Origin: a virus
Length of the DNA: 64,000 bases
Virus record (IMG/VR): IMGVR_UViG_3300034143_000010
Strand: one strand, 5' to 3'
Positions 8,813-33,447 of this stretch are shown one piece after another. Below the pieces are notes generated by a model, which saw only the letters and a program-made list of their open reading frames with translations, was not told where the DNA came from and did no database searches. Made by a program: the position numbers and the translations under genes. Position 1 is the first letter of the stretch, and each line of letters begins with the position of its first letter.

Positions 8813-9034
8813 TTACTTCTTACCACCCTTCTTACTCGCCTTTGAACTCTCAGCTTTAACCTTTGGCGGTCTGCCCGGCTTACGATCTTCAACCAGTTTC
8901 AAGTCACCTTCTTGGATGAAGTAATCCCGGCCCATCTTCTCCGCAGGCAAACGCCCTTCTTCAATAAATTGATGTACGCGACGGACGGTAACGTCTAAGC
9001 GGGAGGCAGCTTCTTTTGTCGTCAGAAGGTTCAT
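8813..9034 (-). CDS. Small excisionase-like (HTH_17) DNA-binding protein
   Basis: MNLLTTKEAASRLDVTVRRVHQFIEEGRLPAEKMGRDYFI plus basic tail. TTGACG-17-TATAAG ends 7 nt before the ATG. Confidence 0.85.
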   Translation of the reverse strand: MNLLTTKEAASRLDVTVRRVHQFIEEGRLPAEKMGRDYFIQEGDLKLVEDRKPGRPPKVKAESSKASKKGGKK

Positions 9035-9084
9035 AGTCAGCCTTATACCCCTAAATAAACTCTTCGTCAAGGTGAAGATTTCCA

Positions 9085-9113
9085 TTGACAAACCCTTCAT
9101 CTTGATGTAGAGT
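9085..9113 (+). promoter_or_regulatory. sigma70 promoter for the rightward module operon
   Basis: TTGACA-17 bp-TAGAGT upstream of the 48-aa ORF. Confidence 0.7.
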
Positions 9114-9150
9114 TTTTGTTAGTCGGACATACCACAAAGGAGCATCAAAC

Positions 9151-9297
9151 ATGAACCGCACAGCCAGCACAACCAACATCACGGTCAGCACCACAACGGC
9201 CAAGCCAGCCAGCAAATACGAGATTAAACAGAGAATCGAAGTTGATGCTTTCGGGCGCAAGCGCACGGCTGAATATGTGAAGGGCATACGTATCTGA
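9151..9297 (+). CDS. 48-aa protein ending in GIRI
   Basis: RBS aaggag, then MNRTASTTNITVSTTTAKPASKYEIKQRIEVDAFGRKRTAEYVKGIRI. Paralog at 32961-33107. Confidence 0.75.
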   Translation: MNRTASTTNITVSTTTAKPASKYEIKQRIEVDAFGRKRTAEYVKGIRI

Positions 9298-9388
9298 AAG
9301 TCAATAAGGGGCGGCTCACTGGTCAGAGTGCGCCGCCCCTTGCACATCCACCCGAATCACCGCACAGCCATATGAGGGGAAACAGGAG

Positions 9389-9790
9389 ATGCAAAATAAT
9401 CCTATCACACAACGGGGCAGCGTCGTAGACCTTGCCCTCTGGCGCAGACAATCGGAGCAGACCGACAAGGCGCTCGCCTTCGTCACCGACTCCGCCGAAT
9501 CAATCATCGTTGAATTCCAACTGACAGACGACGAGCAGGGATTCTTTCAGCGCGGTGATCGTATCTACTGCACCCGCACACAGAATCTTCTACACGGCGA
9601 AACAGGGCTCATCCTCACACCCTACGGCTACATGGTCAGGCGCTACTACATGATGCCGGAAGGCTTCGTCATGCTCAGAAGTTTATTGAACAGTCCAGAC
9701 CTGTGCCTTCATCCGAGAGAGGTCGAGATAGTTGGCCGCGCCTATCAACTTGTGCGCTCTCTGAACGGGCCTGAAAGTGAGGCCGCGTGA
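9389..9790 (+). CDS. Stand-alone degenerate S24/LexA-like C-terminal domain protein
   Basis: GDRIYC...GYMVRRY...MLRSLLNSPD...EVEIVGRAYQLVR follows the S24 pattern but lacks catalytic Ser/Lys and any HTH. Confidence 0.6.
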   Translation: MQNNPITQRGSVVDLALWRRQSEQTDKALAFVTDSAESIIVEFQLTDDEQGFFQRGDRIYCTRTQNLLHGETGLILTPYGYMVRRYYMMPEGFVMLRSLLNSPDLCLHPREVEIVGRAYQLVRSLNGPESEAA

Positions 9791-10146
9791 TGAAAAGACG
9801 AACGCGTAAGCGAGAGCGCCGGAAGATGACGGCGAAACAGGCCAAGGGATTCAGATTGCATAGCGTGAGTTGCGCCGTCGAGCTTTACGGAGCAGAGAGC
9901 GCCACGGCGAAAGGCATGGAATTGGTCAACACCGTACTGATGAGCGGGAGAAGGGACAGGAGGGCTCATGCTCTGATGGAGTTGATCTATTTGCTCTCGA
10001 CAAGGAAGGCGAGGGGCGAGCGGGCACAGATGGTCTTCTATTGCCTGTTTCAAGCGGGCCTTTTCCTTGACAGATGGCGGACGTTCTCCAGCAGGGTTGC
10101 GGCCTACATGAAAACAAGAGACAAACGGGTTCTTCACGTCAAATAA
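9787..10146 (+). CDS. Hypothetical basic protein (module gene)
   Basis: 119-aa ORF with a near-identical paralog at 32109-32462. Confidence 0.7.
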   Translation: MMKRRTRKRERRKMTAKQAKGFRLHSVSCAVELYGAESATAKGMELVNTVLMSGRRDRRAHALMELIYLLSTRKARGERAQMVFYCLFQAGLFLDRWRTFSSRVAAYMKTRDKRVLHVK

Positions 10147-10237
10147 AAGGGGCGTGAAGAGGAAGGGGCGCGGGCTCTCCCGCCAAAAGAATCGGGAGCT
10201 TGAAGCGAGCAGAGCCCGCGCCTCTCAGATAAAAGCG

Positions 10238-10738
10238 ATGGATACTTACAGAGAATTACCATTAGTCAATTCAGAGCAGATGGCGAGAGTTGATCTTGAA
10301 GATTACCTTCGCCTCAATCGCTATCGCTGGCATCTCACGCGGGTAGGTAAATACTCATACGTCTATCGGCTCAGGTGTATGGCCGGACGCTCCACGCAAA
10401 TAATGCTTCATCATGCCATCTTAGACTTACCGCAAGGCGTGCGCGTGAGGCGCATCAATAAAGAGACTCTTGATTATCGCCGCGCTAATCTGAGAATCAC
10501 TGACGGCTCTATCTATCGCAATCCACATTCAAAGCGTTGCCCCTATGCTGTGTGCATCACGATTGACGGGAAGCACTTCTACGTGGGGAGTTGGCCGACA
10601 AAGGAATGGGCGAAGAGGGCGAGAGATGCGGCGGCGGAAGCGGCAAAGACGTTGCGCGGTCGGGGGCTCTCGGAGAGGGCTATTCAGCGCGAGCTTGATC
10701 TGGCGGCGGGCCGGGATGTGAGGAAGAAAGCGGCATAG
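10238..10738 (+). CDS. Degenerate HNH-AP2 domain DNA-binding protein
   Basis: LHHAILDLPQGVRVRRINKETLDYRRANLR (HNH_3 pattern with DH replaced by RR) and ITIDGKHFYVGSWPTKEWAKRARDAAA (AP2-like). Confidence 0.7.
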   Translation: MDTYRELPLVNSEQMARVDLEDYLRLNRYRWHLTRVGKYSYVYRLRCMAGRSTQIMLHHAILDLPQGVRVRRINKETLDYRRANLRITDGSIYRNPHSKRCPYAVCITIDGKHFYVGSWPTKEWAKRARDAAAEAAKTLRGRGLSERAIQRELDLAAGRDVRKKAA

Positions 10739-10747
10739 TTTAACTAT

Positions 10748-11590
10748 ATGAGTAGAAGGCTCACACATAAAACTTGCACCGACTGCGGCGAGACAAAACC
10801 GCGCTCGGATTTTAGCTACGGCACAAAGGGCGAGACGCGACCATTCTGCGCGGATTGTCGGGACTTGCGAAACGTGCGGCGATATAAGGCTTGCACAGAA
10901 GGTCGGATGCGATACCTTGCCTCTATCAAAAACACTTCTGAGGTTAAAACCCTAGAGTGCCGCGAATGTAAATCAGTAAAACCTGTTTATGAATTTGCCA
11001 CGTATCTTAACTCAGAGGGTGAGCGGAAGCATTATAGAAGATGTAAGAGTTGCTACAACGAAGCCCAAAGACTTCTTCGCTTAAATTCAGGCTATACAAC
11101 AAAGCCTAGAATAAAAACAAAACCTTTCTTCTGTGCAAAACTTGGGCTGCTCACCAAGCTATGCTCTAAATGCGGCGAGGTCAAACCGTTAGACGAATTC
11201 CCGAAACTGTCTATTAAACGTGGATACCATACCGCCTGCGCCGTTTGCATGCGACGGGCGCACAAAGAATGGCTGAAAAAGAATCCCGACAAGTATATCG
11301 CGAATCGAATAAAGAGAATTCAAAGATTGCTTAGTGCGCCTTTAACAGAGGAAATTAACAGGGATGAAATTATCGAAAGGGATGCGCGCACTTGCTATCT
11401 CTGCGGGCGTAAACTAGAGGATGAAGTAATCACTTTAGATCATGTTATACCCCTTGCGCGGGGCGGCTCGCATACCGCTTCAAATCTTCGCGTAGCCTGT
11501 TTGAAGTGTAACAGCCGAAAAGGCGCAAAGCTTTTGCATGAATTAGATTGGATTAACGCTGAAACTTATGCAACCGCTCAAGCCCTGTAA
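10748..11590 (+). CDS. HNH endonuclease with N-terminal CxxC zinc-finger repeats
   Basis: CYLCG...TLDHVIPLARGGSHTASNLRVACLKCNSRKG and repeated CxxCGExKP units. Confidence 0.88.
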   Translation: MSRRLTHKTCTDCGETKPRSDFSYGTKGETRPFCADCRDLRNVRRYKACTEGRMRYLASIKNTSEVKTLECRECKSVKPVYEFATYLNSEGERKHYRRCKSCYNEAQRLLRLNSGYTTKPRIKTKPFFCAKLGLLTKLCSKCGEVKPLDEFPKLSIKRGYHTACAVCMRRAHKEWLKKNPDKYIANRIKRIQRLLSAPLTEEINRDEIIERDARTCYLCGRKLEDEVITLDHVIPLARGGSHTASNLRVACLKCNSRKGAKLLHELDWINAETYATAQAL

Positions 11591-12305
11591 AAAATGCGGC
11601 GAGATGAAGCCGTTGGATGCTTTTCATAAAGACCCCGGCACACGTGACAGACGGAAAAACACGTGTCGCAAGTGCCGCCAATACAGAGAATGGATGCCTC
11701 TTACTTCAAGGCCGTGCTTGAAGTGTGGAGAGGTTAAGCCTCTAACTGAATTTCTGCCTAAATCAAGACAGCCCAAAAAGCCCGGACTTGCGCAGGTAGA
11801 GCCCAACTGCCGACCATGCTACAACGCCCTTCAAAGGGCTCGCTACAGAGAGAAGCACCCGGCGCGTCCAGAGCAGCCGCCTCCCACAACTAAAAAGTGC
11901 AAAGGATGTGGTCTAGTTAAGCCGCATTCTGAATTCTATTTCTATAAAAAGAATGGTCGTATCCGATGGCATTCACCATGTAAGACCTGCTACGTAGTTG
12001 TAAACCGCAATCGTCAAGGTGTTAGACGTGCCCGGTTAAATTCCGCGCCAAAAATTGAAAAGATTGATCGTAACGAAATAATCAGGAGGGATAACGGCGT
12101 CTGCTACCTGTGCGGGCAAGATATACCTGTGAATGAAATATCTTTAGATCACGTCATCCCGCTAGCGCGTGGTGGCTCGCATACAAAGGACAATCTTCGC
12201 GCAGTCCATAAAAGATGTAACTCTCGAAAAAAGGCTAAGCTTCCGAGCGAGCTTAATTGGCTTCCGCGCCCCTCTCTTCTTGGCCTTAACCTCACAGGGG
12301 AATAA
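11568..12305 (+). CDS. HNH endonuclease with N-terminal CxxC zinc-finger repeats (paralog)
   Basis: CYLCG...SLDHVIPLARGGSHTKDNLRAVHKRCNSRKK. Confidence 0.88.
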   Translation: MQPLKPCKKCGEMKPLDAFHKDPGTRDRRKNTCRKCRQYREWMPLTSRPCLKCGEVKPLTEFLPKSRQPKKPGLAQVEPNCRPCYNALQRARYREKHPARPEQPPPTTKKCKGCGLVKPHSEFYFYKKNGRIRWHSPCKTCYVVVNRNRQGVRRARLNSAPKIEKIDRNEIIRRDNGVCYLCGQDIPVNEISLDHVIPLARGGSHTKDNLRAVHKRCNSRKKAKLPSELNWLPRPSLLGLNLTGE

Positions 12306-12309
12306 CACA

Positions 12310-15300
12310 TTACCTTGAAAGCACCCCCGCGATTGATTCCGCTAAGTCCCTATGACCTCTCTTCTGATTGAAGCTTGAGCCGCGTGGTTTGGGGACGGTG
12401 ACGTTAATATGGTTGATTGTGGTGTTACCGCCCTGTTGAGCTTGCGGCGAACCCAGTGGAATGATCTGGCCGTCAACGTCGGGCTTGAAATACTCCGTGC
12501 CGTTCTCGTTGACCTCGTAGAGAGTCCCGGCTTCTACCGGGCCGCCGAGAGCGCGCGGGCCACCGAAATTCTTTAGAGTTGGCGGCGAGGTTGGCCTGCC
12601 GGTATTCGGGCCTTCATCTGCGCTACCTCCGCCGCCATCGCCCATGCTACCGATAGCGCCACTAATTGCACCGCTGATGACAGCATTCAGGAGCCCGCCC
12701 AAGAAGCTTTGCTCATGCGGCGTCAACAGCCTCTCCATCGTAGATTCAAGTTGATGGATGCTGTTGTTCGTAGCGTTCCCCTGATTGGCAATCGTCGCCT
12801 CTATGTCCTTCCCTGTACGCTCTATCGTTTCATTGATCGAATCGGTGAGGCTTGGCGCTATCTTGCTCAGGTCTGCGGCCTCAGTTGATACAGGGCCGTC
12901 CTTATTGAGAAACTTGGATTGAAGGCCGGATATTTTCTTATGTAGTGAATCGCTGCTAAGCAAGTCGGTGAGCGAACCGAGCCCCGCATGGCTTCTTAGA
13001 GCAAGCGTGTTTTCGATTGTGGCGCGTGTGTTGTCCGCGATAACCGCGTCCGGCGAGCTATCATTTTTGACGCCTAGAATGTTGCCGAATAGCTTCTCGA
13101 ATACGCCGCCTATTAAGCCCTTGTTCTTATCACCGTCTCCAAACAGTGCATCATTGATTTTCTGAGCAAAGCTGTTGGCGATGCCGCGCTGGACGGACTC
13201 AAGGAAACCGAGGGCGAAGTTCTTTCCGGCTGTGACACCTTTCCCTCGCATGAGGTCTAGCAGTGAGTCACTGATAATGCCTTCCGTATCTTTGCTAAGA
13301 TTTTCAACCGCGTCTTTTGTTCGTGCCTCAGCCATTTCTGCGGCGTCCTGCGCTTTTTTAATCAATGGCGGTAAATTCTCAAAAGCGCTCGCCGTTTCAA
13401 GGGCCGGAAGCTGTAGGGCTCGTAATGCACGCGGGACATAGTTGATTGATAACTCGTTAGCACTTCTCTCTGTATCAATGATTTCGCTGTGCGCTCGCTT
13501 GAGTGCGTCAAATGACGGGTTAATCTTTGAAAAATCAATATCAGGAATGTAATCAACAGTCGGTATTGATGCGACGATGCGCTGTGATGCTGCAATTGCT
13601 TCACGGACTCTCAACTCTTCTTTAAGGTAGGCAAGATACTCTTCGGCGAGTTCGGTTTTCTTCTCTACCGTAAGGTTATATGCCTCTTCTGCACCGATGC
13701 GTCGCTGAAAAAAATCTTCCATCAAACGGATGTCGTCAGCGGTCAACACAAGTGCGTCTTTAGTGCTTTTCTGCTTGTTGATTCGATTGGCGCGACCTTG
13801 CAGTTCGCCTGATTGCACCCCTTCAAAGAGTGAGAATAGGTCATCTGTAATACCACTTGTGCCGACCGCTTCTTCGGGCACTATCTGCCAGGCAGGGGGG
13901 AATTTTGATGGTGGCGCGTGTCGCTCCGTATCAGACGACGGCATCACTGAGACGGGCACAAGGTTGTCGGATTGCGTCCGACTAAGACTTGCCATAATGC
14001 TCTGAATATATTTTTGTGTCTCTTTGTAGGGTGGAATGCCGTGGTATTTCTCAACCGCGCCCTCGCCCGCGTTATATGCAGCAAGGGCTAAGCGAACATC
14101 GCCAGCAAATTTATCTAGCAAGTCAGCTAGGTAGCGCGTGCCGCCTTCAATGTTCTGTGCGGGGTCAAACGGGTCATTGACGCTATACCTTCTGGCCGTG
14201 CCGTCCATCAACTGCATGAGCCCCTTCGCGCCTTTAGGCGAAACAGCATCAACCCTTCCGCGGGATTCCTGCATAATGACGGCACGGATTAGGTCAGCAG
14301 AAAGCCCCGTGCGCTTGGCATTTTCGAGGATGAGCTTTTCAATCTCAGGCGGGAACGGTTTTCTCATCCCTTCTTGCAGGCCCAGATAGAAACCCTCGGC
14401 AGCGAATAAGCCAAGTTTGATGAACTCTTTCGCTGGCGAGCGCGCGCCGATAGCGTCAGCGGTAGCCGTGATGGCGTCGTGCCCCATATTCGCGGCAGCG
14501 CCCATCACGCCCTTAGTGCCTTCGTTTATACCTTGAGCCAAGCCAGCCGCGACATTTAATCCGAGAGCGTTAATATCTCCGCTCATCACCGCCTTGACGG
14601 TGTTCTCCATCGAATCAAAGAGCCTGCTTGTGCCCGTGCTTACCCCTCCAACAAGACGATCTGCCGCCTCGCTGTTTACCCCTTGCAACATTAAGCCAAG
14701 AACTTGCTTGTAACGCTCGAATGCCGGGCCGCTCGCCGTTCCTAGCTGGCGACTAAGCGCCGTGCCAAGATTCGTTTCAATGCCGCTCGCTGTCTTCTCG
14801 CTGATCTCTTTACCAAGTCCCCCAAAGTCCTTATCAATTCCGCGAAGGATGACAGCGACGGCAGTACGGGCATTAAGCAAGCCATGCTCCGCCATTTCCT
14901 GAACTTTGGAGATTCGTTTTTCTTCTGTAAGATTGCCGAGCTTTGAATCTGTGCGCGCGATTTCGTCAGCAAGATATCTCCACGCCGGGATGCCCGCCTC
15001 TACGAGCTGGCGACTCATCTCTTCCGCAGAGACTTTTCCTTTATTCCACATCTGACCGAGCGCGAGAGTAATTGAGTCAATCTTTTGTGCCGCCTCTGCA
15101 CCAGTCTTGCCTGCCCCTGCGGCGGCATCGCCGGCGGCGCGCAGGATAGGAATAACCTGTTTGGCGTTGAAGCCCATCGCCAAAAGGCGTTGCGCCCCTG
15201 TATAGACGCCGGGCAAGTCCATCGGTGACTCTCGCTCAAAAGCGGCGAGTTGGCCCATGAAGTCTTTCGCGGCTTTTCCATCTTTGAGTATCTGAGTAAA

Positions 15301-15732
15301 ACCGAGCGCGACTTCTTCCTGCATTCTGCGGTAGTCAAATCCCAGCTTGATGCCGGAAGTCATCGCAGAAGTGACGCCGCCGATGATCGTAGTGATCGCG
15401 CTTGCCGCGAGGTTCCCCCCTGTTACCGCAAGGACGCCGCCCGAAAGGCCGCTTCCGAGTATGTTACTGAGGTTTAATTTGTCTGTGTTTTTGAGCCCTA
15501 AAATCTTGCGGGTGAGTTCGCCAATATAGCCTGTAGTGCGCTCAGCTTGACGGCCTGCGTCCCGCAGTTCGCGGTTAAAGCCTTTCATGGAGCGCTCTGA
15601 TAAACCTATGGCTTTTCCGTGTTCTCTTCCACGCGACTCAGCGCGGGCCATCCCTCTTTCATATTCAGACAGGCCACGATTAAAATCGCTCAAGTCTGCT
15701 TTGAAGAATTGTGTGAGTGTGCCAAGTTCCAA
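12310..15732 (-). CDS. Tail tape measure protein with lytic transglycosylase (SLT) domain
   Basis: Tape-measure motifs (LALGQMWNKGKVSAEE...LVEAGIP) and AVIMQESRG...GAKGLMQLM...ALAAYNAGEG. TTG start after GGAG is inferred (ORF open to 15765). Confidence 0.93.
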   Translation of the reverse strand: MELGTLTQFFKADLSDFNRGLSEYERGMARAESRGREHGKAIGLSERSMKGFNRELRDAGRQAERTTGYIGELTRKILGLKNTDKLNLSNILGSGLSGGVLAVTGGNLAASAITTIIGGVTSAMTSGIKLGFDYRRMQEEVALGFTQILKDGKAAKDFMGQLAAFERESPMDLPGVYTGAQRLLAMGFNAKQVIPILRAAGDAAAGAGKTGAEAAQKIDSITLALGQMWNKGKVSAEEMSRQLVEAGIPAWRYLADEIARTDSKLGNLTEEKRISKVQEMAEHGLLNARTAVAVILRGIDKDFGGLGKEISEKTASGIETNLGTALSRQLGTASGPAFERYKQVLGLMLQGVNSEAADRLVGGVSTGTSRLFDSMENTVKAVMSGDINALGLNVAAGLAQGINEGTKGVMGAAANMGHDAITATADAIGARSPAKEFIKLGLFAAEGFYLGLQEGMRKPFPPEIEKLILENAKRTGLSADLIRAVIMQESRGRVDAVSPKGAKGLMQLMDGTARRYSVNDPFDPAQNIEGGTRYLADLLDKFAGDVRLALAAYNAGEGAVEKYHGIPPYKETQKYIQSIMASLSRTQSDNLVPVSVMPSSDTERHAPPSKFPPAWQIVPEEAVGTSGITDDLFSLFEGVQSGELQGRANRINKQKSTKDALVLTADDIRLMEDFFQRRIGAEEAYNLTVEKKTELAEEYLAYLKEELRVREAIAASQRIVASIPTVDYIPDIDFSKINPSFDALKRAHSEIIDTERSANELSINYVPRALRALQLPALETASAFENLPPLIKKAQDAAEMAEARTKDAVENLSKDTEGIISDSLLDLMRGKGVTAGKNFALGFLESVQRGIANSFAQKINDALFGDGDKNKGLIGGVFEKLFGNILGVKNDSSPDAVIADNTRATIENTLALRSHAGLGSLTDLLSSDSLHKKISGLQSKFLNKDGPVSTEAADLSKIAPSLTDSINETIERTGKDIEATIANQGNATNNSIHQLESTMERLLTPHEQSFLGGLLNAVISGAISGAIGSMGDGGGGSADEGPNTGRPTSPPTLKNFGGPRALGGPVEAGTLYEVNENGTEYFKPDVDGQIIPLGSPQAQQGGNTTINHINVTVPKPRGSSFNQKRGHRDLAESIAGVLSR

Positions 15733-15837
15733 AATAATCACTCCGAAATAAATATCGGCGCACACACCACCCGCGCCTCTGTGATTCTCTGACCCTGCTT
15801 TTAATCGTCGTTTGAATCACATCTCACCGCCCACGTC

Positions 15838-16547: not shown

Positions 16548-16554
16548 TTCAGCC

Positions 16555-16665
16555 TCAGATAGAATGGTTGATCGTCAAATCCACGCTTCCGCCCGCGACC
16601 TCGAACGGTGTCGTCACCAGGTCGTTAAGGAAGTCGGAAGCGTTCGCGAATAGAGTCAGTTCCAT
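16555..16665 (-). CDS. 36-aa ORF between tail tube and TAC
   Basis: MELTLFANASDFLNDLVTTPFEVAGGSVDLTINHSI*, starting 2 nt after the tail tube stop. Confidence 0.45.
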   Translation of the reverse strand: MELTLFANASDFLNDLVTTPFEVAGGSVDLTINHSI

Positions 16666-16667
16666 GA

Positions 16668-22652: not shown

Positions 22653-22667
22653 ATATCATTTTTGTAT

Positions 22668-24296: not shown

Positions 24297-24335
24297 GTTA
24301 TTGTGTATCCCCCACAATCAGACAATTGCTGAATC

Positions 24336-25832: not shown

Positions 25833-27595
25833 ATCCTGAACTCAACTGATCCCACTTCTTTGGTTTTGAATAGGAAGTCGGGAGCGACTGACAACACGAA
25901 GCCGTCACCGTCGTCGGGCGAGCGACCCAATCGTTTGGGTTTGCGAAACTCTATCTTCGACTCCAGCCTCTTAACGTCCACGCCCTTGAGGTTGACCCAC
26001 TCGTAAAGGCGCTCACACAGATCGGCTTCGAGCGTCTCCGGGGGCTTTTCGATGCGTATCCCCTTCAGCGTCTCCGCCGCTTCGGCCATCGCTTGAGTGA
26101 TCAGATCGTGATAGGACTTCTCGTCGGTGGCACTGGCATTGAAATGCACTTCGTAGACACGGAAGTCTATGAACGCGGCGCGCAGCTCCATATCGGTTTT
26201 GAGCTTGTCCACGACGCCGCCACCGAAGCCGCCGCCGCCATCGACGCGGATGTGCAGGCTTTTAACGCCCTTCCCGGCGAGCTTGAGAGCCTCTGCCTTG
26301 ATGACGCGCGCATAATCGTTCGTGTCCTGTTTCCAGAACTGCGCGGCGCGCCAGGCGCGGCCCATGTAGCGAATAAAGAGTGTTCCGTAGTCACGCCCGT
26401 AGCGAGATACGTCCACGCCCATGCGCGCGCGCGTCGGGTCTTCTGCTGGAGCCTCCCGCTTGCAGGCAGCCTCGTAGCGCCCGACGGTAATCAGGCTCTT
26501 GTCGGAGATATTTGCCGGAGCAATGCCGAGCACGCGGAACATGAATTCCGGGTCGGGCTTAAAGATCGTGCCCTCCGGATGCGTGCCGTCTTTAGTGACG
26601 ACCGGGAAAGGTAGCTCGAAGGTCAAGTCATCTTCAGAGTGCTCAGTGACAACCTCGCAGTGCTTCTCCACCATTTCCTCGACGTACTGCCGCTTGACCG
26701 CGCCCGGCACGACCTCACGGCCTGCGACGACGTTCGGGTGATGAATGCAGGAGATGCGAAAGCTCTTGACGTTGGAATTGTTTTTCGCCTTATGAAACTT
26801 CGACGAGCGGGTCTTAGGGTTCGCCAGCATGAGCACGATGGAGATTCCGCCCGAGGTCATCGAATCAACCGCATTCCAGACGAAGTCGGCTACGCCCTCG
26901 GCCTCATCCAGCACATAGAGGTTATATTTGCCGTGCTGGCCCTGCGCGCGCTCTGTTCCTGTGCCGCTGGCGTTGTTTGTCGCCTTGCCCTTGATGAAGT
27001 GCTCGTCGCCTACCCTGATCTCCAAATCCATGACCCGGCCCGGAAGGCCCTTGTCGCGCCTGTCAGTCTTTATCTCCTTGAATAGCAGGTCATGAATCTG
27101 CTCGCCTGAAGGCGCAAAGCAGTACCCGACGCATGGCGTGAAGTGATCGAAGAAGTGGTTGACCAAGCCGGAGGTCAGCTTGGTCTTACCGACGGTGTGA
27201 CCGGCTTCGACACGAATACGGTTTTTAATGACTTGTCCGGGCTTCCAATACTGTAGATCGTCAACTGTAATAGGCCCCGGCTTCAGCCACGGGCAATACG
27301 GCGCATCTTCTTCGGAAAGGAAGCCAGCTTCGTATGCCTTGCGCTCGTGCTGCTGTCGTAGCGCGAGCACGTAAGCGTCTATAACCTGCTGCTGACCGGG
27401 ATGATCTTCGTCTCCGCTCCATGGCTCCCAGCCCAGATGATTCTTGATATAGGTGGCCGGTTCGTAGTGCGTAGCATTGAAGCGGCTCGTCTGAGGAGCT
27501 GGGCCATAGACCTTTAAGGCAAGCTGCGCGGCCTCCGCCTGTTGGTCAGGCGGCAACTGCATTATGCGTGCATAGACTTCCTCACGACTGAGCAT
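25829..27595 (-). CDS. terL: Terminase large subunit
   Basis: Walker A-like AGHTVGKT, Walker B VLDEAEG, nuclease GVDVSRYGRD and SPDDGDG. Start refined to MLSREEVY. Confidence 0.9.
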   Translation of the reverse strand: MLSREEVYARIMQLPPDQQAEAAQLALKVYGPAPQTSRFNATHYEPATYIKNHLGWEPWSGDEDHPGQQQVIDAYVLALRQQHERKAYEAGFLSEEDAPYCPWLKPGPITVDDLQYWKPGQVIKNRIRVEAGHTVGKTKLTSGLVNHFFDHFTPCVGYCFAPSGEQIHDLLFKEIKTDRRDKGLPGRVMDLEIRVGDEHFIKGKATNNASGTGTERAQGQHGKYNLYVLDEAEGVADFVWNAVDSMTSGGISIVLMLANPKTRSSKFHKAKNNSNVKSFRISCIHHPNVVAGREVVPGAVKRQYVEEMVEKHCEVVTEHSEDDLTFELPFPVVTKDGTHPEGTIFKPDPEFMFRVLGIAPANISDKSLITVGRYEAACKREAPAEDPTRARMGVDVSRYGRDYGTLFIRYMGRAWRAAQFWKQDTNDYARVIKAEALKLAGKGVKSLHIRVDGGGGFGGGVVDKLKTDMELRAAFIDFRVYEVHFNASATDEKSYHDLITQAMAEAAETLKGIRIEKPPETLEADLCERLYEWVNLKGVDVKRLESKIEFRKPKRLGRSPDDGDGFVLSVAPDFLFKTKEVGSVEFRI

Positions 27596-28100
27596 TGTCA
27601 GCAGGCAGCTCGTCAGGAGAAGCGCCAAGAAGTTCTGCCAGAGCCTCACGCGCATTAACCTTCACGTCTACTTTCTGGCGGCGGTCGCCCATCTCTTTAG
27701 CGATGTCATCAAGCAGGCCACGGAATTGCGTAACCTCCGCTGAATTGAAAGTATCGACATCAACGATTTCCTGAAAATCGCCACTGCCGACGGCCTTCCT
27801 ATCGGGCAGCCACAACCGGCCATTTTCGAGTAGGTCTTTCTCCAGTTCTTCGGCGAGCTTATTCAGCGACTCAACGCGCCGCTCCTTGCGGGCAAAACCT
27901 ACTTTCAGCGCGCTCGTCTCCGCTTCATCCTTAATCTGCGAGACCTTCACTTTGCGCGTTTTGCGATAGTGGTCTACCTGCTGGCGTGAGACTGAGTAAG
28001 GCTCGTCGAACTTACTTGCCTGCTCGTTAATCTCGTTGCTTTCGAGGCCCTCTGAGATCAATGCGAGCAGGTGCTTTTTTTGGTCGCTGTTCAGCTTCAT
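27582..28100 (-). CDS. Putative terminase small subunit
   Basis: Helical ORF overlapping the terL start. VSRQQVDHY, LDDIAKEMG. Confidence 0.65.
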   Translation of the reverse strand: MKLNSDQKKHLLALISEGLESNEINEQASKFDEPYSVSRQQVDHYRKTRKVKVSQIKDEAETSALKVGFARKERRVESLNKLAEELEKDLLENGRLWLPDRKAVGSGDFQEIVDVDTFNSAEVTQFRGLLDDIAKEMGDRRQKVDVKVNAREALAELLGASPDELPADNAQS

Positions 28101-28308
28101 CGTTTTCTTGCCCAGGCTCGGCATCAACGAACCTGACTGTTACTTCAAGGAGACGCGCGCGCCCGTGATGCGCGAGCAGAAGCGCCGCGTCGGCTTCGGA
28201 GGCTGGCAGGTCGAGCTTGATGCGCGCACCGTCGCCTCGCCCACCGGAGAAAGTCACAGCGCTTTGAATCGGCGGCAGTGAGGCGAGGAATTTGATCTCA
28301 TCTACCAA
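28027..28308 (-). CDS. Hypothetical protein
   Basis: DEIKFLASLPPIQSAVTFSG.GDGARIKLDLP. TTG start inferred. Confidence 0.5.
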   Translation of the reverse strand: MVDEIKFLASLPPIQSAVTFSGGRGDGARIKLDLPASEADAALLLAHHGRARLLEVTVRFVDAEPGQENDEAEQRPKKAPARIDLRGPRKQRD

Positions 28309-28495
28309 GCTGTCCCGCCTTGAATTGGAGGAATCTGTAAGGCTCTGTGTTCCTGTATTGCAGCGCGGCGCACCTGTCGCACCGCCGCACTTCCCTGTCC
28401 CTGCGAACGGTGCCGCCGTGCCAGACGCACCAGGCATGGAGAGGAAGGAGGTTGCAGAGTAAGAATTTAAGAATTTTGTTCATCGCACTTGTCAC
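28298..28495 (-). CDS. Small Cys-containing hypothetical protein
   Basis: LCNLLPLHAW...RCDRC. Coupled to neighbouring ORFs. Confidence 0.45.
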   Translation of the reverse strand: MTSAMNKILKFLLCNLLPLHAWCVWHGGTVRRDREVRRCDRCAALQYRNTEPYRFLQFKAGQLGR

Positions 28496-28505
28496 CCGTT
28501 ACTTG

Positions 28506-28901
28506 TCAGGCCTGCACAGTAAGTTGGCGGGCCATCTGCCGCGCACGCTTCGCCTCGCGCCGGTTCACCTTCGGCTCCTTGCGCACGGCGGTGATGCCGC
28601 GTATGAAATTGCCATCTTCTGGGTTCACACGGTCTGATCGGTGCGCATAGACGCCGTAGCGACCGCACACAGCTGATGGCTTATCAGCCTCTTCCTGCCG
28701 CTTCTGAAGCTCGTAGCGGCGTACATTACACTCAGCTTGAGAGCGCGCCGTATCCGGGTGCTTACAAGCCCTGTGATAGCCCGCCTCAACCGTTCCTGCT
28801 TCGATCAGGTCTGCGAGCAGCCTGATCTTGACCTCCTGCGGGTCGGTCTGCCGCTCCATCTCAGCGGCGACCTTCAGTTCTATTTCTTCGAGATCGATCA
28901 T
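28506..28901 (-). CDS. Hypothetical protein
   Basis: RBS ggag before MIDLEEIELK. Confidence 0.55.
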   Translation of the reverse strand: MIDLEEIELKVAAEMERQTDPQEVKIRLLADLIEAGTVEAGYHRACKHPDTARSQAECNVRRYELQKRQEEADKPSAVCGRYGVYAHRSDRVNPEDGNFIRGITAVRKEPKVNRREAKRARQMARQLTVQA

Positions 28902-29007
28902 TTTGTCTCCTGTTTGACTGCTCCGACGAAGCCTTGATAACAGAGGATTTGAATCACCAGAGTTATGGCCCGGTTTATGATCTTCACTGCGATACCTCAT
29001 GCTTCAA

Positions 29008-29026
29008 AATCGTCAAATTTACGAAT
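29008..29026. repeat. Palindromic repeat, copy 3
   Basis: aatcgt caaattt acgaat. Confidence 0.9.
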
Positions 29027-29027
29027 A

Positions 29028-29216
29028 TCAACTCTGTAGATTCTCGGCCCACTCGACCTGTCCCCGCACCACGAAGAACTGCGCGCCGCAGTCGTGCGGA
29101 CAAATGATCGAAGGCTCAGCCGACCATGTGCCGCCTTCGTGCTGTGTGATCTCGTGTTCGTCGAGAGTCATCCAGCCGCCGCAGCGCGGGCACTTGATTT
29201 TCTTCCTGATACTCAA
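29028..29216 (-). CDS. Small zinc-binding protein (DUF6527-like)
   Basis: CPRCG...TWSAEPSIICPHDCGAQFFVVRGQVEW. Confidence 0.55.
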   Translation of the reverse strand: MSIRKKIKCPRCGGWMTLDEHEITQHEGGTWSAEPSIICPHDCGAQFFVVRGQVEWAENLQS

Positions 29217-29341
29217 GACTCTTGCTCCCTCTTCGCCCGCTCCTTGTAGTAGTTGTCAAGCAACTTCTGAATGACGATGCTCAGAATGCCGATAAAAGCG
29301 ACGATCACGCTTGCAACGCCGCTATCTAATTTCCTGCGCAT
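29213..29341 (-). CDS. 42-aa single-TM protein
   Basis: MRRKLDSGVASVIVAFIGILSIVIQKLLDNYYKERAKREQES*, overlapping both neighbours. Confidence 0.5.
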   Translation of the reverse strand: MRRKLDSGVASVIVAFIGILSIVIQKLLDNYYKERAKREQES

Positions 29342-29937
29342 GGAAGCTTCTCCTCTGGAATTCTGAAGAATGCCTGAACGACCCTTGGGTCGAACTGGCT
29401 GCCGCTACAACGTGTCAGCGCCGCGGCTGCCGCCTGATAGCCTTTCCCTGCGCGATAACACCGGTTATTCGTGATGGCGTCATAAGCATCGGCCACGGCC
29501 ACGATGCGCGCCCCGAGCGTGATCCCAGCGCCTGCAAGGCCGCACGGGTAGCCATGTCCGTCAAATCGCTCGTGATGCTGGCCGACGATATCAACGATAT
29601 GGACGGGCATCTCCAGTTCGGCGAGGGCCGCCGTGCCCTCGATAACATGCGCTCGCATGTGCATGCGCTCGATAGCCGTTAATTCGCCTTCCTTCTTGAG
29701 CACAGAGTCTTTCGTGCAAATCTTGCCGATGTCGTGAAGCTGTGCGCCGTAATAGAGCGCGAGCAACTCGGCGCGCTCGAGCTTCAGCTCTCTGCCGATA
29801 AGCACGGAAACACGCGCGACCCGTAAAACATGGTCATGCGTTCCCCTATCCTTTAACTTGAGCGCAACTAACAATGCACTGCTAGCGATTCTTAGTGCAT
29901 CGCCCGTAAGTGCAGAAGATTTTAATGTTATCGGCAT
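29326..29937 (-). CDS. Stand-alone HD-GYP phosphodiesterase
   Basis: HVLRV, LHDIGKI, HVIEG, QHHERFDGHGYPCGL, ARIVAVADAYDAIT, GSQFDP. Confidence 0.92.
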   Translation of the reverse strand: MPITLKSSALTGDALRIASSALLVALKLKDRGTHDHVLRVARVSVLIGRELKLERAELLALYYGAQLHDIGKICTKDSVLKKEGELTAIERMHMRAHVIEGTAALAELEMPVHIVDIVGQHHERFDGHGYPCGLAGAGITLGARIVAVADAYDAITNNRCYRAGKGYQAAAAALTRCSGSQFDPRVVQAFFRIPEEKLPCAGN

Positions 29938-30263
29938 TTAATTATTCGGACGGTGTTATGCCCTGAAACCCTTCCACCGATGTAGCTTAGGTAAATCCGG
30001 TCTTACGTTTTGGGAGGGTGTCCGCGCCCCTCACGAACAGGTTATCTAAGACCTCTCTTTAGTTTATTTAGGGTGTCCGCCCGCCCGCCATTGAGAGCCT
30101 AATAAAGCCCGACGTTTAATTACTCAGAGGGTGTCCGCCTTGACGCACTCCGCCGAAAAGAGCTTAGATAAAATGGATATTTAACTTTTCAGGGGGGTGT
30201 TACGGCTTTTGCCCCTACAGGCAAAGGGTAGGACTTTTAATTGATTAGTTTGGGGAGGGTGAA
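29919..30263 (-). promoter_or_regulatory. Tandem array 2 of six tripartite promoter-like units
   Basis: (G/C)GGTG(T/A) at 29951, 30016, 30071, 30129, 30195, 30257. Each has YTAA (GTAA in unit 2) and a TANNNT hexamer at 13-14 nt on the minus strand. Confidence 0.75.
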
Positions 30264-30266
30264 ACG

Positions 30267-30299
30267 GTGAATAGGAAGAGAATAATTGCTATCGGTTTA
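30267..30299 (+). pseudogene. 5' remnant of a DUF4177-like gene
   Basis: GTG-NRKRIIAIGL resembles MFISRKIIAIGL of 5723 at the same position relative to the array, then similarity stops. Confidence 0.6.
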
Positions 30300-30346
30300 C
30301 CTTCGCCTCTAGTTTGCCGTCACTTTGATAGTTTCTCTTAGCTTAT

Positions 30347-30500
30347 CAAAGTGATCGCGCGTGCCCGTGACTACTCCGCATTACGCGGCTTCTCAAGCAA
30401 CGCCCTCCCTAATGGGACACGTTTGCGCTTGAAGGTTAAGCCCTAACCTCAATATCTCTAATGCGGCAGAGTGGTCACGACTAACACTCAAGCCGCATGT
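30347..30500 (-). ncRNA. Predicted TnpB omega-RNA (scaffold ending at TCAC 30367, guide beyond)
   Basis: Minus strand gagaagccgcgtaatgcggagtagTCAC is a typical IS200/605 right end just after tnpB. The 5' extent is a guess. Confidence 0.55.
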
Positions 30501-31514
30501 TTGGCATTCATGCCAGCGTTGCGAGAGTGTTTTAGGTACGCCAGCGCCGCATGTGCATCTCTGTGATGTTCCGCGAGGGTCAACTTTAACCAGCTTGCGT
30601 CCAGTCTCTTCCACTTTGTACGCAACCTTATTTAAAAAGCTTGACCATCCAGCATCATTAACAGACTTGGCTAGCATTCCGCTCGCCAAGCCTTTAATGT
30701 TCAAATCTTCTATGGCGATCAATCCGTAATTGTTGACGAGAGCGCGAGAGGCTTTATGGTGAAAGTCTGCGCGTTGATTCTTAATGTGGGCATGAATGCG
30801 CTGTAGAAGTTGCACGGCTTTCCGGCGACGATGAGAGCCTTTCTTCCGTCGTGCTACTTTGCGCTGTGCCCTGCGAAGCTTGGCTTGTGCTGTCTTGAAA
30901 TAGCGCGGGTTCTCTATTTCTGTACCATCAGAGAGGGTAGCGAAAGTGGTAAGGCCAACATCTATTCCAATAGACTCAGAGCAAGGCGGCAATGGCTTCT
31001 CTTCACATTCAAGACTAAAACACACGTACCAACGTCCAGCCTCGCGCTTAACAGAAACTGTCTTGATCTTGCCTTCGATAACGCGGTGAAGTTTTACTTT
31101 AACGAGCCCAATCCCTTGCAGTCTTAACTTGCCATTATCAAGTAAGCGGCAACCATTACCATAAGCAGGATAGGTAAAGCTGTCGAAGCGGCGTGCAGAT
31201 TTAAATCGCGGAAATCCCGCTTTCTCTTTACGCTTCACGCGAGCAAAGAAAGCCTTGAACGTCTTATCAAGACGGCGCAATACATCATGCGCTACGTTGC
31301 AATTGAAGATACCAGTGTCGCCCTCCGCTCGAATCTCTTTAAGCTGGCGTGTTTGATCGTATAGTTGGATGGACTTGCGCTCTAACTTCCAAGCGTCGCG
31401 GCGCTCCTGAAGCCCAGCGTTATAAAGTCTGCACGCCTCCGCTAGTTGACCATTCAGCAAGTCAACCTGTGCGCGTGTCGGATACAACCTATACTTGAAA
31501 GTCTTACGAATCAT
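30393..31514 (-). CDS. tnpB: RNA-guided endonuclease TnpB (IS605/IS1341-type)
   Basis: KTFKYRLYPT N-terminus, RuvC IGIDVGL / IAIEDLN / SRDHSAA, zinc finger CTCG...CQTCG. No tnpA in the window. Confidence 0.95.
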   Translation of the reverse strand: MIRKTFKYRLYPTRAQVDLLNGQLAEACRLYNAGLQERRDAWKLERKSIQLYDQTRQLKEIRAEGDTGIFNCNVAHDVLRRLDKTFKAFFARVKRKEKAGFPRFKSARRFDSFTYPAYGNGCRLLDNGKLRLQGIGLVKVKLHRVIEGKIKTVSVKREAGRWYVCFSLECEEKPLPPCSESIGIDVGLTTFATLSDGTEIENPRYFKTAQAKLRRAQRKVARRKKGSHRRRKAVQLLQRIHAHIKNQRADFHHKASRALVNNYGLIAIEDLNIKGLASGMLAKSVNDAGWSSFLNKVAYKVEETGRKLVKVDPRGTSQRCTCGAGVPKTLSQRWHECQTCGLSVSRDHSAALEILRLGLNLQAQTCPIREGVA

Positions 31515-31521
31515 CTGCTAT

Positions 31522-32022
31522 TTACGCAGCCTTCTTTCTCACATCCCGGCCCGCCGCCAGATCAAGCTCGCGCTGAATAGCCCTCTCCGAGAGCCCCCGA
31601 CCGCGCAACGTCTTTGCCGCTTCCGCCGCCGCATCTCTCGCCCTCTTCGCCCATTCCTTTGTCGGCCAACTCCCCACGTAGAAGTGCTTCCCGTCAATCG
31701 TGATGCACACGGCAAACGGGCAACGCTTTGAATGAGGATTGCGATAGATAGAGCCGTCAGTGATTTTCAGATTAGCGCGGCGATAATCAAGAGTCTCTTT
31801 ATTGATGCGCCGCACGCGCACGCCTCGCGGCAAATCCAACACGGCATGATGAAGCATTATTTGTGTGGAGCGTCCGGCCATACACCTGAGCCGATAGACG
31901 TATGAGTATTTACCTACGCGCATGAGATGCCAGCGATAGCGATTGAGGCGCAGGTAATCTTCAAGATCAACTATCGCCGTCTGCTCTGAATTGACTAATG
32001 GTAATTCTCTATAAGGTTTCAT
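31522..32022 (-). CDS. Degenerate HNH-AP2 domain protein (paralog of 10238-10738)
   Basis: Near-identical sequence, same loss of HNH catalytic residues. Confidence 0.7.
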   Translation of the reverse strand: MKPYRELPLVNSEQTAIVDLEDYLRLNRYRWHLMRVGKYSYVYRLRCMAGRSTQIMLHHAVLDLPRGVRVRRINKETLDYRRANLKITDGSIYRNPHSKRCPFAVCITIDGKHFYVGSWPTKEWAKRARDAAAEAAKTLRGRGLSERAIQRELDLAAGRDVRKKAA

Positions 32023-32108
32023 CGCTTTTGATTCGAGGCGCGGCCCACTCGCTTCAAGCTCCCGACCTTTGGCGAGAGAGCCCGCGCCCCGTCCTCTTCA
32101 CGCCCCTT

Positions 32109-32462
32109 TTATTTGACGTGAAGAACCCGCTTGTCCCTGGTTTTCATGTAGCCCGCAACCCTGCTGGAGAACGTCCGCCACCTGTCAAGGAAAAGGCCCG
32201 CCTGAAACAGGCAATAGAAAACCATCTGTGCCCGCTCGCCCCGCTCCTTCCTTGTAGAGAGCAGATAGATCAACTCCATCAGAGCATGAGCCCTCCTATC
32301 CCTTCTCCCGCTCATCAGTACGGTGTTGACCAAAGCCATACCCTTCGCCGTGGCGCTCTCTTCTCCGTAAAGCTCGACGGCGCAACTCACGCTATTCAAC
32401 CTGAATCCCTTGACCTGTCGTGCCGTCATCTTCCGGCGCTCGCGCTTTCGTCTACTCATCAC
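32109..32462 (-). CDS. Hypothetical basic protein (paralog of 9787-10146)
   Basis: Near-identical translation. Confidence 0.7.
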   Translation of the reverse strand: MMSRRKRERRKMTARQVKGFRLNSVSCAVELYGEESATAKGMALVNTVLMSGRRDRRAHALMELIYLLSTRKERGERAQMVFYCLFQAGLFLDRWRTFSSRVAGYMKTRDKRVLHVK

Positions 32463-32860
32463 GCGGCCTCACTTTCAGGCCCGTTCAGAGAGCGCACAAG
32501 CTGGTAGGCGCGGCCAACTATCTCGACCTCGCTCGGATGAAGGCACAGGTCTGGACTATTCAATAAACTTCTGAGCATGACGAAGCCTTCCGGCATCATG
32601 TAGTAGCGCCTGACCATGTAGCCGTAAGGTGTGAGGACGAGCCCTGTTTCGCCGTGTAGAAGATTGTTCGTGCGGGTGCAGTAGATACGGTCGCCGCGCT
32701 GAAAGAATCCCTGCTCGTCGTCTGTCAGTTGGAATTCAACGATGATTGATTCGTCGGAGTCGGTGACGAAGGCGAGCGCCTTGTCGGTCTGCTCCGATTG
32801 CTTTCGCCAGAGGGCAAGGTCTGACACGTTGCCCCGTTGTATGTTAGGATTGTTTTGCAT
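32459..32860 (-). CDS. Degenerate S24/LexA-like C-terminal domain protein (paralog of 9389-9790)
   Basis: Near-identical translation. Confidence 0.6.
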   Translation of the reverse strand: MQNNPNIQRGNVSDLALWRKQSEQTDKALAFVTDSDESIIVEFQLTDDEQGFFQRGDRIYCTRTNNLLHGETGLVLTPYGYMVRRYYMMPEGFVMLRSLLNSPDLCLHPSEVEIVGRAYQLVRSLNGPESEAA

Positions 32861-32960
32861 CTCCTGTTCTTCCCCTCAATTTTTGGCTGTGCGGGTGGAT
32901 AGGTTGGTGTTCAGGCAGCGGCGCACTCTGACCAGTGCGCCGCTGCTATTTAGTTTCACC

Positions 32961-33107
32961 TCAGATACGGATGCCCCTCACATATTCAGCCGTGCGCTTG
33001 TGCCCGAAGGCATCAACTTCGATTCTCTGTTTAATCTCGTATTTGCTGGCAGGCTTGGCCGTCGTGGTGCTGACCGTGATATTGGTTGTGCTGGCTGTGC
33101 GGTTCAT
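32961..33107 (-). CDS. 48-aa protein ending in GIRI (paralog of 9151-9297)
   Basis: MNRTASTTN...AEYVRGIRI*. TTGACA-18-TAACAT promoter upstream. Confidence 0.75.
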   Translation of the reverse strand: MNRTASTTNITVSTTTAKPASKYEIKQRIEVDAFGHKRTAEYVRGIRI

Positions 33108-33225
33108 CTCTTTAGCTCCTGTCGTGATGTGTAACTGACGGAAGAGATGTTAACGCACGAGTAAGCGTCTTGTCAAGCAAATAATTACTCTTGCGTAAAT
33201 ATCTTTTTGGATTTAGAATGCGCGC

Positions 33226-33447
33226 ATGGTCAAAGGAATGTTTACTACTGAAGAGGCAGCAGCAGAATTAGGCGTGACCTCTGCGCGCGTGCGGCAGATG
33301 ATTATTGATGGCACTATTGAAGCTGAGAAGTTTGGGCGCGACCTTTTGATAACAGCAGAGGCGCTTCAAGTGGCGAGGCAGAGAAAAACGAAGCCCGGCC
33401 CGACTCCAACAGCTAAGAAATCAGCAAAGAAAAGCAGTAAGAAGTAA
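33226..33447 (+). CDS. Small excisionase-like (HTH_17) DNA-binding protein
   Basis: FTTEEAAAELGVTSARVRQMIIDGTIEAEKFGRDLLI. TTGCGT-17-TAGAAT ends 6 nt before the ATG (probably leaderless). Confidence 0.85.
   Translation: MVKGMFTTEEAAAELGVTSARVRQMIIDGTIEAEKFGRDLLITAEALQVARQRKTKPGPTPTAKKSAKKSSKK

Follow-up and report, generated by a model that had tools for sequence, protein, structure and literature searches.

The 64,000-nt stretch of viral DNA held as IMG/VR record IMGVR_UViG_3300034143_000010, hereafter the window, is a prophage of a temperate acidobacterial phage whose late genes are all on the minus strand. Two modules, A and B, lie within it, each built around a unit of four genes (P1 to P4) that is followed at one end by nuclease genes and is divergent at the other from a gene for an HTH_17 protein (HTH_A and HTH_B, respectively). 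As a preliminary description of this DNA had proposed, the divergent HTH genes lead TIR and DUF4062 cargo toward a common palindrome plus terminator, and the terminal nucleases differ: two HNH genes follow copy A of the unit, and tnpB starts 7 nt past the P4 stop in copy B. The features are collected in Table 1.

Table 1. Features of modules A and B and of the surrounding prophage.
Feature	Position (strand)	Description	Remarks
Module A end	5971-6045 (-)	intrinsic terminator (stem 5982-6005, then T-run) plus palindrome	91% identical to 36952-36878
Cargo A2	6074-7957 (-)	627-aa TIR plus TPR protein	Pfam TIR_2/TPR
Relic	8025-8155 (-)	last ~60 nt of pentapeptide-TIR gene plus decayed HTH_17 tail-coding segment	87% identical to 34618-34489
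Cargo A1	8161-8892 (-)	243-aa protein, N-terminal zinc ribbon	no family match
HTH_A	8813-9034 (-)	73-aa HTH_17 protein with basic GRP-type tail	Pfam HTH_17 4.8e-8
Control region A	9041-9113		between HTH_A and P1
P1	9151-9297 (+)	48-aa protein, no family	ends KGIRI
P1-P2 hairpin	9308-9339 (+)	12-13 bp	stable; no U-tract on sense strand
P2	9389-9790 (+)	133-aa protein, stand-alone LexA/CI C-terminal-domain fold	
P3	9787-10146 (+)	119-aa orphan, arginine-rich N-terminus MMKRRTRKRERRK	overlaps P2 stop by 4 nt
Leader before P4	10135-10225 (+)	structured, ~90 nt, two hairpins	z -4.2, -3.5
P4	10238-10738 (+)	166-aa degenerate HNH_3 plus AP2-like protein	
HNH1	10748-11590 (+)	280-aa Zn-ribbon (Stc1-like) plus HNH_5 endonuclease	motif intact
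HNH2	11568-12305 (+)	245-aa HNH1 paralog, same architecture	~34% identity to HNH1
Tape measure	12310-15765	with SLT domain	
Portal	24336-25832	DUF4055	
Large terminase	25829-27655		distant phage terminase matches
Resident HD gene	29326-29937	stand-alone HD_5 (HD-GYP-type)	first gene after promoter array B; conserved in place in G057, 58% identity
17-nt HD sequence	30366-30350 (-)	GGGCACGCGCGATCACT (ends CACT)	26 nt past tnpB stop
TnpB	30393-31514 (-)	373 aa	OrfB_IS605 2e-29; Cas12f1-like_TNB 5e-17; HTH_OrfB_IS605 3e-9
Unit copy B	31522-33107 (-)	P4 31522-32022; P3 32109-32462; P2 32459-32860; P1 32961-33107	
Control region B	33147-33220		between HTH_B and P1
HTH_B	33226-33447 (+)	73-aa HTH_17 protein	44% identical to HTH_A
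Cargo B1	33481-34554 (+)	pentapeptide-repeat plus TIR protein	
Cargo B2	34626-35696 (+)	DUF4062 protein	
Cargo B3	35794-36762 (+)	322-aa protein of unknown type	
Module B end	36878-36952 (+)	terminator plus palindrome as in module A	
HD-gene remnant	38020-37943 (-)	first 26 codons	ends in 13-mer GGGCACGCGCGAT; left scar of block B insertion
Holin	38301-38708		
HTH_3 repressor-like gene, 265-aa gene, Peptidase_M78 (ImmA/IrrE-like) gene	59789-61539		near prophage right end

A repeat search and blastn placed the inverted copies of the unit at 9138-10737 (plus strand; copy A) and 33120-31523 (minus strand; copy B). Global alignment of the two gave 91.6% identity over 1624 columns, with 31 gap columns and 137 differing columns (8.4%). 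The inverted duplication reported in the preliminary description therefore is real and includes all four open reading frames, which are open in both copies, but the term near-identical overstated the resemblance of what are diverged sequences. Identity amounts to 94.8% in P2, 94.6% in P4, 92.1% in P1 and 91.1% in P3, and to 85.9% in the leader before P4 and 77.3% in the P1-P2 spacer. Substitutions at codon positions 1, 2, and 3 number 0/2/5 in P1, 3/6/13 in P2, 4/7/15 in P3, and 4/6/17 in P4, and this excess at third positions indicates that all four are real genes under purifying selection. The longest exact run shared by the copies is 173 nt (10550-10722), located just ahead of the divergence into the nuclease arms. 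The modules also share shorter pieces elsewhere (8025-8155 with 34618-34489, 87% identical; 8819-8883 with 34621-34559, 80%). The promoter array and DUF4177 gene or remnant said to accompany each unit correspond to a piece that is 89% identical in direct orientation (5598-5757 and 30138-30298), although the DUF4177 match falls under the Pfam cut-off (23.7 vs. 25 bits).

The duplication was examined against a 97%-complete draft genome of 41 contigs and against metagenome runs; the window itself contains no N. Draft contigs C30, C11, and C20 correspond to positions 1-10690, 10582-22814, and 31570-64000, respectively, whereas 22815-31569, which includes the portal, terminase, HD, and tnpB genes, is absent from the draft. 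Near the edge of this gap, 141 nt of the window (22674-22814) are identical to the start of contig C3, and the end of contig C18 matches 22755-22925 at 94% identity. A 1.99-Mb contig on record encodes the P4 protein of copy B, which means that an assembly less fragmented than the draft exists. The region is covered at ~46x and ~7x in two soil/biocrust metagenome runs and in no RNA run; in both metagenomes, depth doubles over the repeat, the variants of copy B are present at about half depth, and the two copies are about equally deep. Two further runs, X3 and X4, contain the same organism at very low depth rather than a cassette-free relative. All four runs are Logan contigs, which are broken at every exact repeat of at least 31 nt. 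The draft also breaks inside the repeat, yet each copy is joined to unique flanks on its own contig; owing to the 173-nt identical stretch, the draft is ambiguous as to which nuclease arm follows which copy. Taken together, the 137 differing columns, the unique flanks on each contig, and the doubled depth establish that the duplication is real.

The search for relatives gave two related prophages, both from the same bacterial family, and neither carries the cassettes. The first, G057, has a portal protein 82% identical to that of the window and carries the portal, TerL, TerS, two small genes, and an HD gene, followed by two small genes at the lysis-gene position and then homologs of window 38886-39863; everything between 29937 and ~37400 of the window is missing. 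In the second, G060 (portal 59% identical), a homolog of the pentapeptide-TIR gene of copy B (61% identical) lies 196 nt past the tape-measure gene and is followed by a different 298-aa gene and then tail genes, with no HTH gene, unit, or nuclease. The site of copy A is the tape-measure/tail junction and that of copy B the lysis/packaging junction. The contents of G057 and G060 thus indicate that both sites are variable and that the unit is not core phage equipment. The preliminary description had itself raised the prospect that the duplication is an assembly artefact or that the unit belongs to the fixed core genes of these phages. The break of the draft within the repeat and the absence of 22815-31569 from it would agree with an artefact, but the differences between the copies, their separate flanks, and the doubling of depth in two runs contradict this, just as the two prophages without the unit, and a P2 family of 11 clusters among 1.8 billion proteins, contradict a core set. 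Either explanation is scarcely credible.

The 1.6-kb arms might instead bound a programmed invertible segment, with the 21-kb head-tail block between them flipping as a phase switch. Had the 137 differences been evenly spread, the identical run would be expected to be much shorter than 173 nt (P ~5e-5), which suggests a recent conversion or crossover between the arms beside the point at which the nuclease arms diverge. The draft breaks at exactly this stretch, and the segment carries its own promoter array such that both orientations could be transcribed. However, no recombinase or invertase family was found among the open reading frames scanned around either arm, the arms are 1.6-kb blocks of genes, unlike the short inverted crossover sites of Gin/Hin/Cin-type segments, the 8.4% divergence disfavors frequent recombination, and a flip would only swap the nuclease arms. 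Programmed inversion of the segment is unlikely, and a phase switch of this kind is given very little weight, but the arms may recombine sporadically.

The control regions of the two modules share a common design. HTH_A starts at an ATG (9034) located 7 nt past a -10 box, and the -10 box of HTH_B ends 6 nt before its ATG; neither gene has a Shine-Dalgarno sequence, and both are read as leaderless. In control region A, the leftward HTH promoter (TTGACG-17-TATAAG) has its -35 box within putative operator O1 (9062-9077), and the unit promoter (TTGACA at 9085-9090, 17-nt spacer, TAGAGT at 9108-9113) is overlapped by putative operator O2 (9095-9110). In control region B, the unit promoter on the minus strand (TTGACA-18-TAACAT, 33176-33147) is accompanied by putative operators at 33185-33198 and 33150-33164, and the HTH promoter (TTGCGT-17-TAGAAT, 33191-33219) has its -35 box inside the first repeat. 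The unit-facing TTGACA promoters are the best sigma-70 matches of the whole of modules A and B, and each is bracketed by two repeats of 14-16 nt, the putative operators. An operator-flanked promoter with its own repeat sequence also is present in genome G044 and in loci L007 and L049; a -10 box lies just before the HTH ATG in G044, and there is no clear -10 box upstream of the HTH gene in L007. The operators of modules A and B differ while P1 to P4 are ~94% identical, and over four loci the operators track residues of the HTH protein. Thus, module B and G044 have in common the operator TTACGCAAGAGT and the HTH residues ARVRQ...GRDL(L/V)I, and module A and L007 have in common the operator CGTCAAG(G/A)TGAA and the residues GRDY(F/L)I. 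Differing operators beside units of such high identity, combined with HTH proteins that are only 44% identical, suggest that operator-binding specificity resides in the HTH_17 protein.

A third HTH_17 gene that reads as leaderless is located in the same genome (G000:C33; L054 7861-9480), divergent from a SWIM zinc-finger gene and an integrase gene. A similar zinc-finger gene comes first in L007 and L049, and the switch adjoins a PrimPol/DUF3987 gene, which points to a small integrative element.

Among the products of the unit, P1 has an analog in G044 that ends in RGIQI. The window P2 protein gave no direct Pfam match, no match to an HTH family, and no PADLOC match. Exhaustive HMMER searches of 1.84 billion representatives returned a P2 family of 11 clusters, in which relatives P0006 and P0010 pass Pfam PF00717 (Peptidase_S24) with 31.4 and 39.7 bits, respectively, against a cut-off of 23.3. 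The family profile aligned with acidobacterial LexA at 97.4% probability in hhalign, and the first 40 PDB matches of the AlphaFold model (pLDDT 78) in Foldseek were the C-terminal domains of LexA, lambda CI, 186 CI, and UmuD'. The catalytic Ser-Lys dyad of these proteins is missing from P2: the LexA sequence GESM aligns to DDEQ in both window copies, replacing Ser by Glu, and LKRY aligns to VRRY, in which the change of Lys to Arg is invariant across the whole family. There also is no N-terminal DNA-binding domain, a single short helix preceding the barrel. A scan of the phylum with the P2 profile mostly picked up host LexA, a contig search with a profile from a narrower P2 alignment retrieved only G044 and one spurious locus, and IMG/VR scans with P4 and with P2 revealed no close relatives. 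P2 may be a mimic of the LexA/CI domain.

The four-nucleotide overlap of P3 with the P2 stop recurs for the gene after P2 in every other context seen. P3 itself had no relative besides its own second copy among 5.8 billion proteins, phmmer gave no match in the PDB, and the ESM Atlas model was of low confidence with meaningless structural neighbors. The predicted score for a P2-P3 complex was 0.00, which is not evidence either way. The P3 N-terminus (MMKRRTRKRERRKMTAKQAK; 9787-9850 and 32400-32462) is reminiscent of the arginine-rich motif through which lambdoid N proteins bind RNA. The sense strand inside P3 carries a terminator-like hairpin with a T-run ~100 nt before the stop codon, which is kept in both copies (10043-10059 and 32198-32214).

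The RNA elements of the unit appear to be maintained. The hairpin between P1 and P2 keeps its pairing by way of two compensatory changes between copies A and B. The core AATCGGGAGCTTGAAGCGA of the leader before P4 is conserved in copy B (32015-32120), in L007 (9905-10010) despite an unrelated upstream gene, in L011 (9600-9700), and also in the P1-P2 spacer of G044. Rfam contained no family that matched anywhere in the window, the leader and the 3' end of tnpB included. An action of P3 on these hairpins, comparable to the binding of boxB-type hairpins by lambda N in antitermination, is speculative.

The P4 gene most likely starts at ATG 10238, which gives 166 aa as in copy B. The protein matched nothing in Pfam or PADLOC, although its relative P0003 matches HNH_3 weakly (E 0.0012). 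The P4 model is of moderate quality overall (pLDDT 63.6) with a three-strand plus helix AP2-like unit at residues 87-138 (pLDDT ~80); over its full length, matches among AFDB clusters in Foldseek were AP2/ERF and HNH proteins (E 1e-5, probability 1.0), and nothing significant was found in the PDB. P4 of both copies, like P0002, has VRRIN in place of the canonical HNH_3 motif VDHIN of a G057 protein, and P0003 has VRFVN. This replacement implies that the catalytic His of the beta-beta-alpha-Me motif has been lost and that P4 is probably nuclease-dead. The HNH-AP2-like assignment in the preliminary description therefore is retained, but its term nuclease-armed can apply only to the HNH and TnpB proteins encoded downstream. 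Judged from its model, P4 presumably is a DNA-binding protein and may act as a DNA-binding specificity or regulatory factor.

The HNH genes of copy A extend to within 4 nt of the stop of the convergent tape-measure gene, and they have weak PADLOC matches to PtuB and REase models. The translation of TnpB in copy B shows RuvC-like D/E/D motifs. The short distance from the P4 stop leaves no room for the left end of an IS200/IS605 element. No tnpA adjoins tnpB in the window, and the draft, from which the stretch with the window tnpB is absent, yielded no tnpB of its own. The 3' flank of tnpB has a fold z-score of -1.8.

The sequence past this flank bears on how block B arrived. The 13-mer GGGCACGCGCGAT at the end of the HD-gene remnant recurs at 30354-30366, where it is extended to the 17-nt HD sequence. 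The remnant is coupled to the preceding gene of the lysis cassette, as the intact HD gene of G057 overlaps an upstream small gene. On these grounds the 13-nt repeat is read as the two sides of a phage HD gene split by the 7.6-kb block, and not as a random 13-mer. Moreover, GGGCACGCGCGATCACT sits at the position where IS200/IS605 elements template their guide RNA. The sequence at the guide position has a 16/16 match in the intact HD gene of G057, whereas the resident intact HD gene is mismatched and reads GGGGAACGCATGACCAT at that place. The match fits a TnpB aimed at a cassette-free HD allele.

Relatives of the modules were sought in other genomes. On every contig of sufficient length (modules A and B, G044, L048, and L049), P2 relatives lie in an operon that is divergent from an HTH_17 gene. 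The terminal position is occupied by Zn-ribbon-HNH genes in window module A (two genes) and G044 (one gene), by TnpB in window module B, by a Zn-ribbon protein gene cut by the contig end in L049, and by HTH plus PD-(D/E)xK-like (MTES_1575) in L047/48; the module in L047 lies against a Mu-type portal gene. In locus L010, the operon opens with a Zn-ribbon-HNH gene, and TnpB starts 16 nt past P2. Its TnpB and P2 are 46 and 44% identical, respectively, to those of the window, and this similar divergence suggests that the two genes travel together. The P2 family thus is rare and is present on phage and plasmid-like contigs, the class of nuclease changing and the divergent layout being kept.

For P4, two other relatives were found. 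P4 with its leader is located on the plasmid-like contig L007 (ParA, PIN, and Mob_Pre genes), where it is divergent from an HTH_17 gene and a relaxase gene fills the terminal slot, and in L008 adjoining phage tail genes. The 133- and 119-aa genes of L007, considered as P2 and P3 homologs by size, proved not to be related to them. The occurrence of the HTH_17/operator/P4-leader design on a Mob_Pre/ParA/PIN contig, together with the third HTH_17 switch in an integrase/PrimPol island of the same genome and with relics of older junctions, could mean that the cassettes are decaying regulatory leftovers of another mobile element, such as an L007-like plasmid or satellite or the G000:C33 island, which were captured twice and serve only to drive cargo. 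Decay is at odds with four unit genes, two HNH genes, and tnpB that are all intact, with substitutions between the copies that are concentrated at third codon positions, and with hairpin stems that keep pairing through compensatory changes, and this origin is considered improbable.

The cargo shows its own pattern of exchange. Residues 1-172 of cargo protein A2 match the PADLOC TIR-TM model PDLC03016 (E 5.8e-60). One and the same junction at the 3' end of a TIR gene is found in three loci (8025-8155, 34489-34621, and L045 6520-6660); in module B and G060, the TIR gene ahead of it is intact. The gene after the junction differs each time, encoding a TIR-TPR protein, a DUF4062 protein, and a 298-aa protein. 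A common junction with differing next genes indicates that cargo has been replaced around conserved junctions.

Considered as a whole, the modules are best explained as a repressor-gated accessory cassette that homes via its terminal nuclease, to which a probability of about 0.5 is assigned. In a lysogen, the HTH protein would bind its operators and thereby silence the nuclease operon and adjust expression of its own cargo operon. Loss of repression, as upon induction or co-infection, would allow the nuclease operon to be read through the hairpins, and P1 to P4 and the nuclease would be made. The nuclease then would cut cassette-free alleles in related phage genomes, and recombinational repair would copy the cassette and the neighboring cargo into the cut genome, which constitutes homing. 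In copy B, TnpB would have replaced the HNH enzymes and would be guided by RNA from the 3' end of tnpB that ends in GGGCACGCGCGATCAC. The suggestion in the preliminary description of a self-regulated moron family that spreads between late-operon sites is borne out insofar as the modules are accessory, possess their own promoters and operators, and change neighbors, cargo, and nuclease; spread driven by the nuclease, on the other hand, is proposed on the strength of the split HD gene and of the match at the guide position.

Several observations weigh against homing. For the two HNH genes of copy A, neither a target nor a scar was found, and no omega-RNA family match was present in Rfam near the 3' end of tnpB. 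The bases 5' of the guide match differ, being GACAG in the HD remnant and ATAAA in G057, and a 13-bp direct repeat is not the product expected of IS200/IS605 transposition or of clean homing. In addition, the cargo TIR gene is present in G060 without the unit, so that cargo and unit need not move together. The further proposal that the modules constitute a new class of repressor-gated homing cassette with an exchangeable nuclease, in which TnpB operates off its transposon and is programmed by adjacent DNA against the cassette-free HD allele, is decidedly doubtful.

Defense systems commonly pair a conserved front part with an effector whose class varies. The rightward operon accordingly can be viewed as an inducible anti-phage system of the abortive-infection type in which P2, P3, and P4 are sensor and adaptor and the nuclease is an exchangeable effector, with no homing and with the cassettes moving by ordinary phage recombination only. 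This possibility, doubtful though not to be set aside lightly, draws on the constant front part and changing effector class of the modules, the TIR and DUF4062 neighbors, the weak PtuB and REase matches of the HNH genes, and a location in a variable site of a prophage like the P2/P4 hotspots (PMC9122126). Nevertheless, P2 and P4 lack PADLOC and Pfam matches, TnpB is not known as a defense effector, L007 has P4 and its leader ahead of a plasmid relaxase, and the guide-position sequence matches the very phage HD gene that the block splits, which fits homing better.

Features of the phage outside the modules were also recorded. In GenBank phages, the large terminase as query gave only distant matches (at most 29% identity), and there is thus no annotated close phage. 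The HTH_3/M78 pair near the right end of the prophage probably is the phage's own immunity switch. The motif TTTAATTATTCGGAGGGTGTCCGC precedes late operons, singly or in arrays (5501-5540, 21899-21938, 29921-30138, 38842-38881, and 39874-39913), and a copy is present in the related G057 prophage (L046 7239-7288). Near-palindromes AATCGTCAAATTTACGATT are located at operon boundaries (6013-6053, 22004-22044, 29005-29045, 45721-45761, and 61578-61618); their half-site CGTCAA resembles the operator of module A, which may be a coincidence.

Prophage morons and defense hotspots usually are described as passive cargo, but here the cargo is accompanied by a switch and by a nuclease operon of very rare proteins. 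If the homing cassette is real, the genomes of related phages would receive several kilobases of anti-phage cargo, driven by a TnpB co-inherited with an operon for a dead LexA domain. The HNH/TnpB slot and the HD fragment at the guide position raise the question of whether TnpB can act as a homing nuclease for phage cargo that is not a transposon. Furthermore, the unit appears to be a natural case in which two enzyme folds, LexA C-terminal domain and HNH-AP2, have been kept without their catalytic residues, and the window adds to scant knowledge of temperate phages of Acidobacteriota.

None of the known systems with which the cassette was compared combines a putatively leaderless HTH_17 switch, a dead LexA domain, a dead HNH-AP2 protein, and an HNH/TnpB slot. 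In phage lambda, PRM-cI-rexA-rexB is divergent from PR-cro, and a leaderless repressor gene leads defense genes in the lysogen. Likewise, the repressor gene of the cassette is read as leaderless, leads cargo of defense type, and is divergent from a strong promoter, with operators that overlap both promoters. Unlike in lambda, however, the cassette repressor is a 73-aa HTH_17 protein without an S24 domain, the dead S24-like domain being a separate product of the opposite operon; that operon encodes small proteins and a nuclease but no lytic functions; and there are two copies, both in the late region, while the immunity pair of the phage is elsewhere.

Free-standing homing endonuclease genes (HEGs) and HEG-islands place nuclease genes at the boundaries of exchanged segments, and an HEG at one position can be replaced by one of another class (Barth, Dunham & Seed 2023, PMC10448857). 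The cassette nucleases similarly bracket an essential operon, that of the head-tail genes, and the HNH_3/AP2 architecture matches. In contrast to HEG-islands, the AP2 protein is apparently dead, the nuclease is last in a repressor-gated operon of five or six genes, and one slot is filled by TnpB; homing of the cassette is a proposal. The resemblance to IS200/IS605 TnpB with omega-RNA consists of the set of TnpB domains and of DNA past the 3' flank that matches a potential target, whereas the window tnpB has no adjoining TnpA and no room for a left end, and accompanies the P2 operon in two lineages that have diverged. As in defense hotspots of prophages and satellites (Rousset et al. 2022, PMC9122126), variable cargo of defense type occupies fixed positions between conserved genes; the cassette cargo differs in having its own repressor, operators, and nuclease operon, and the host is acidobacterial. 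Finally, P4 lacks the CapR cysteine cluster of the CasPR anti-CRISPR DNA binders (CapR plus AP2; bioRxiv 10.64898/2026.02.23.707548), possesses instead an N-terminal degenerate HNH_3 fold, and comes from another host phylum, but resembles them as an apparently nuclease-free AP2 protein, presumably acting through site-specific DNA binding, that is encoded in an accessory locus of a prophage.

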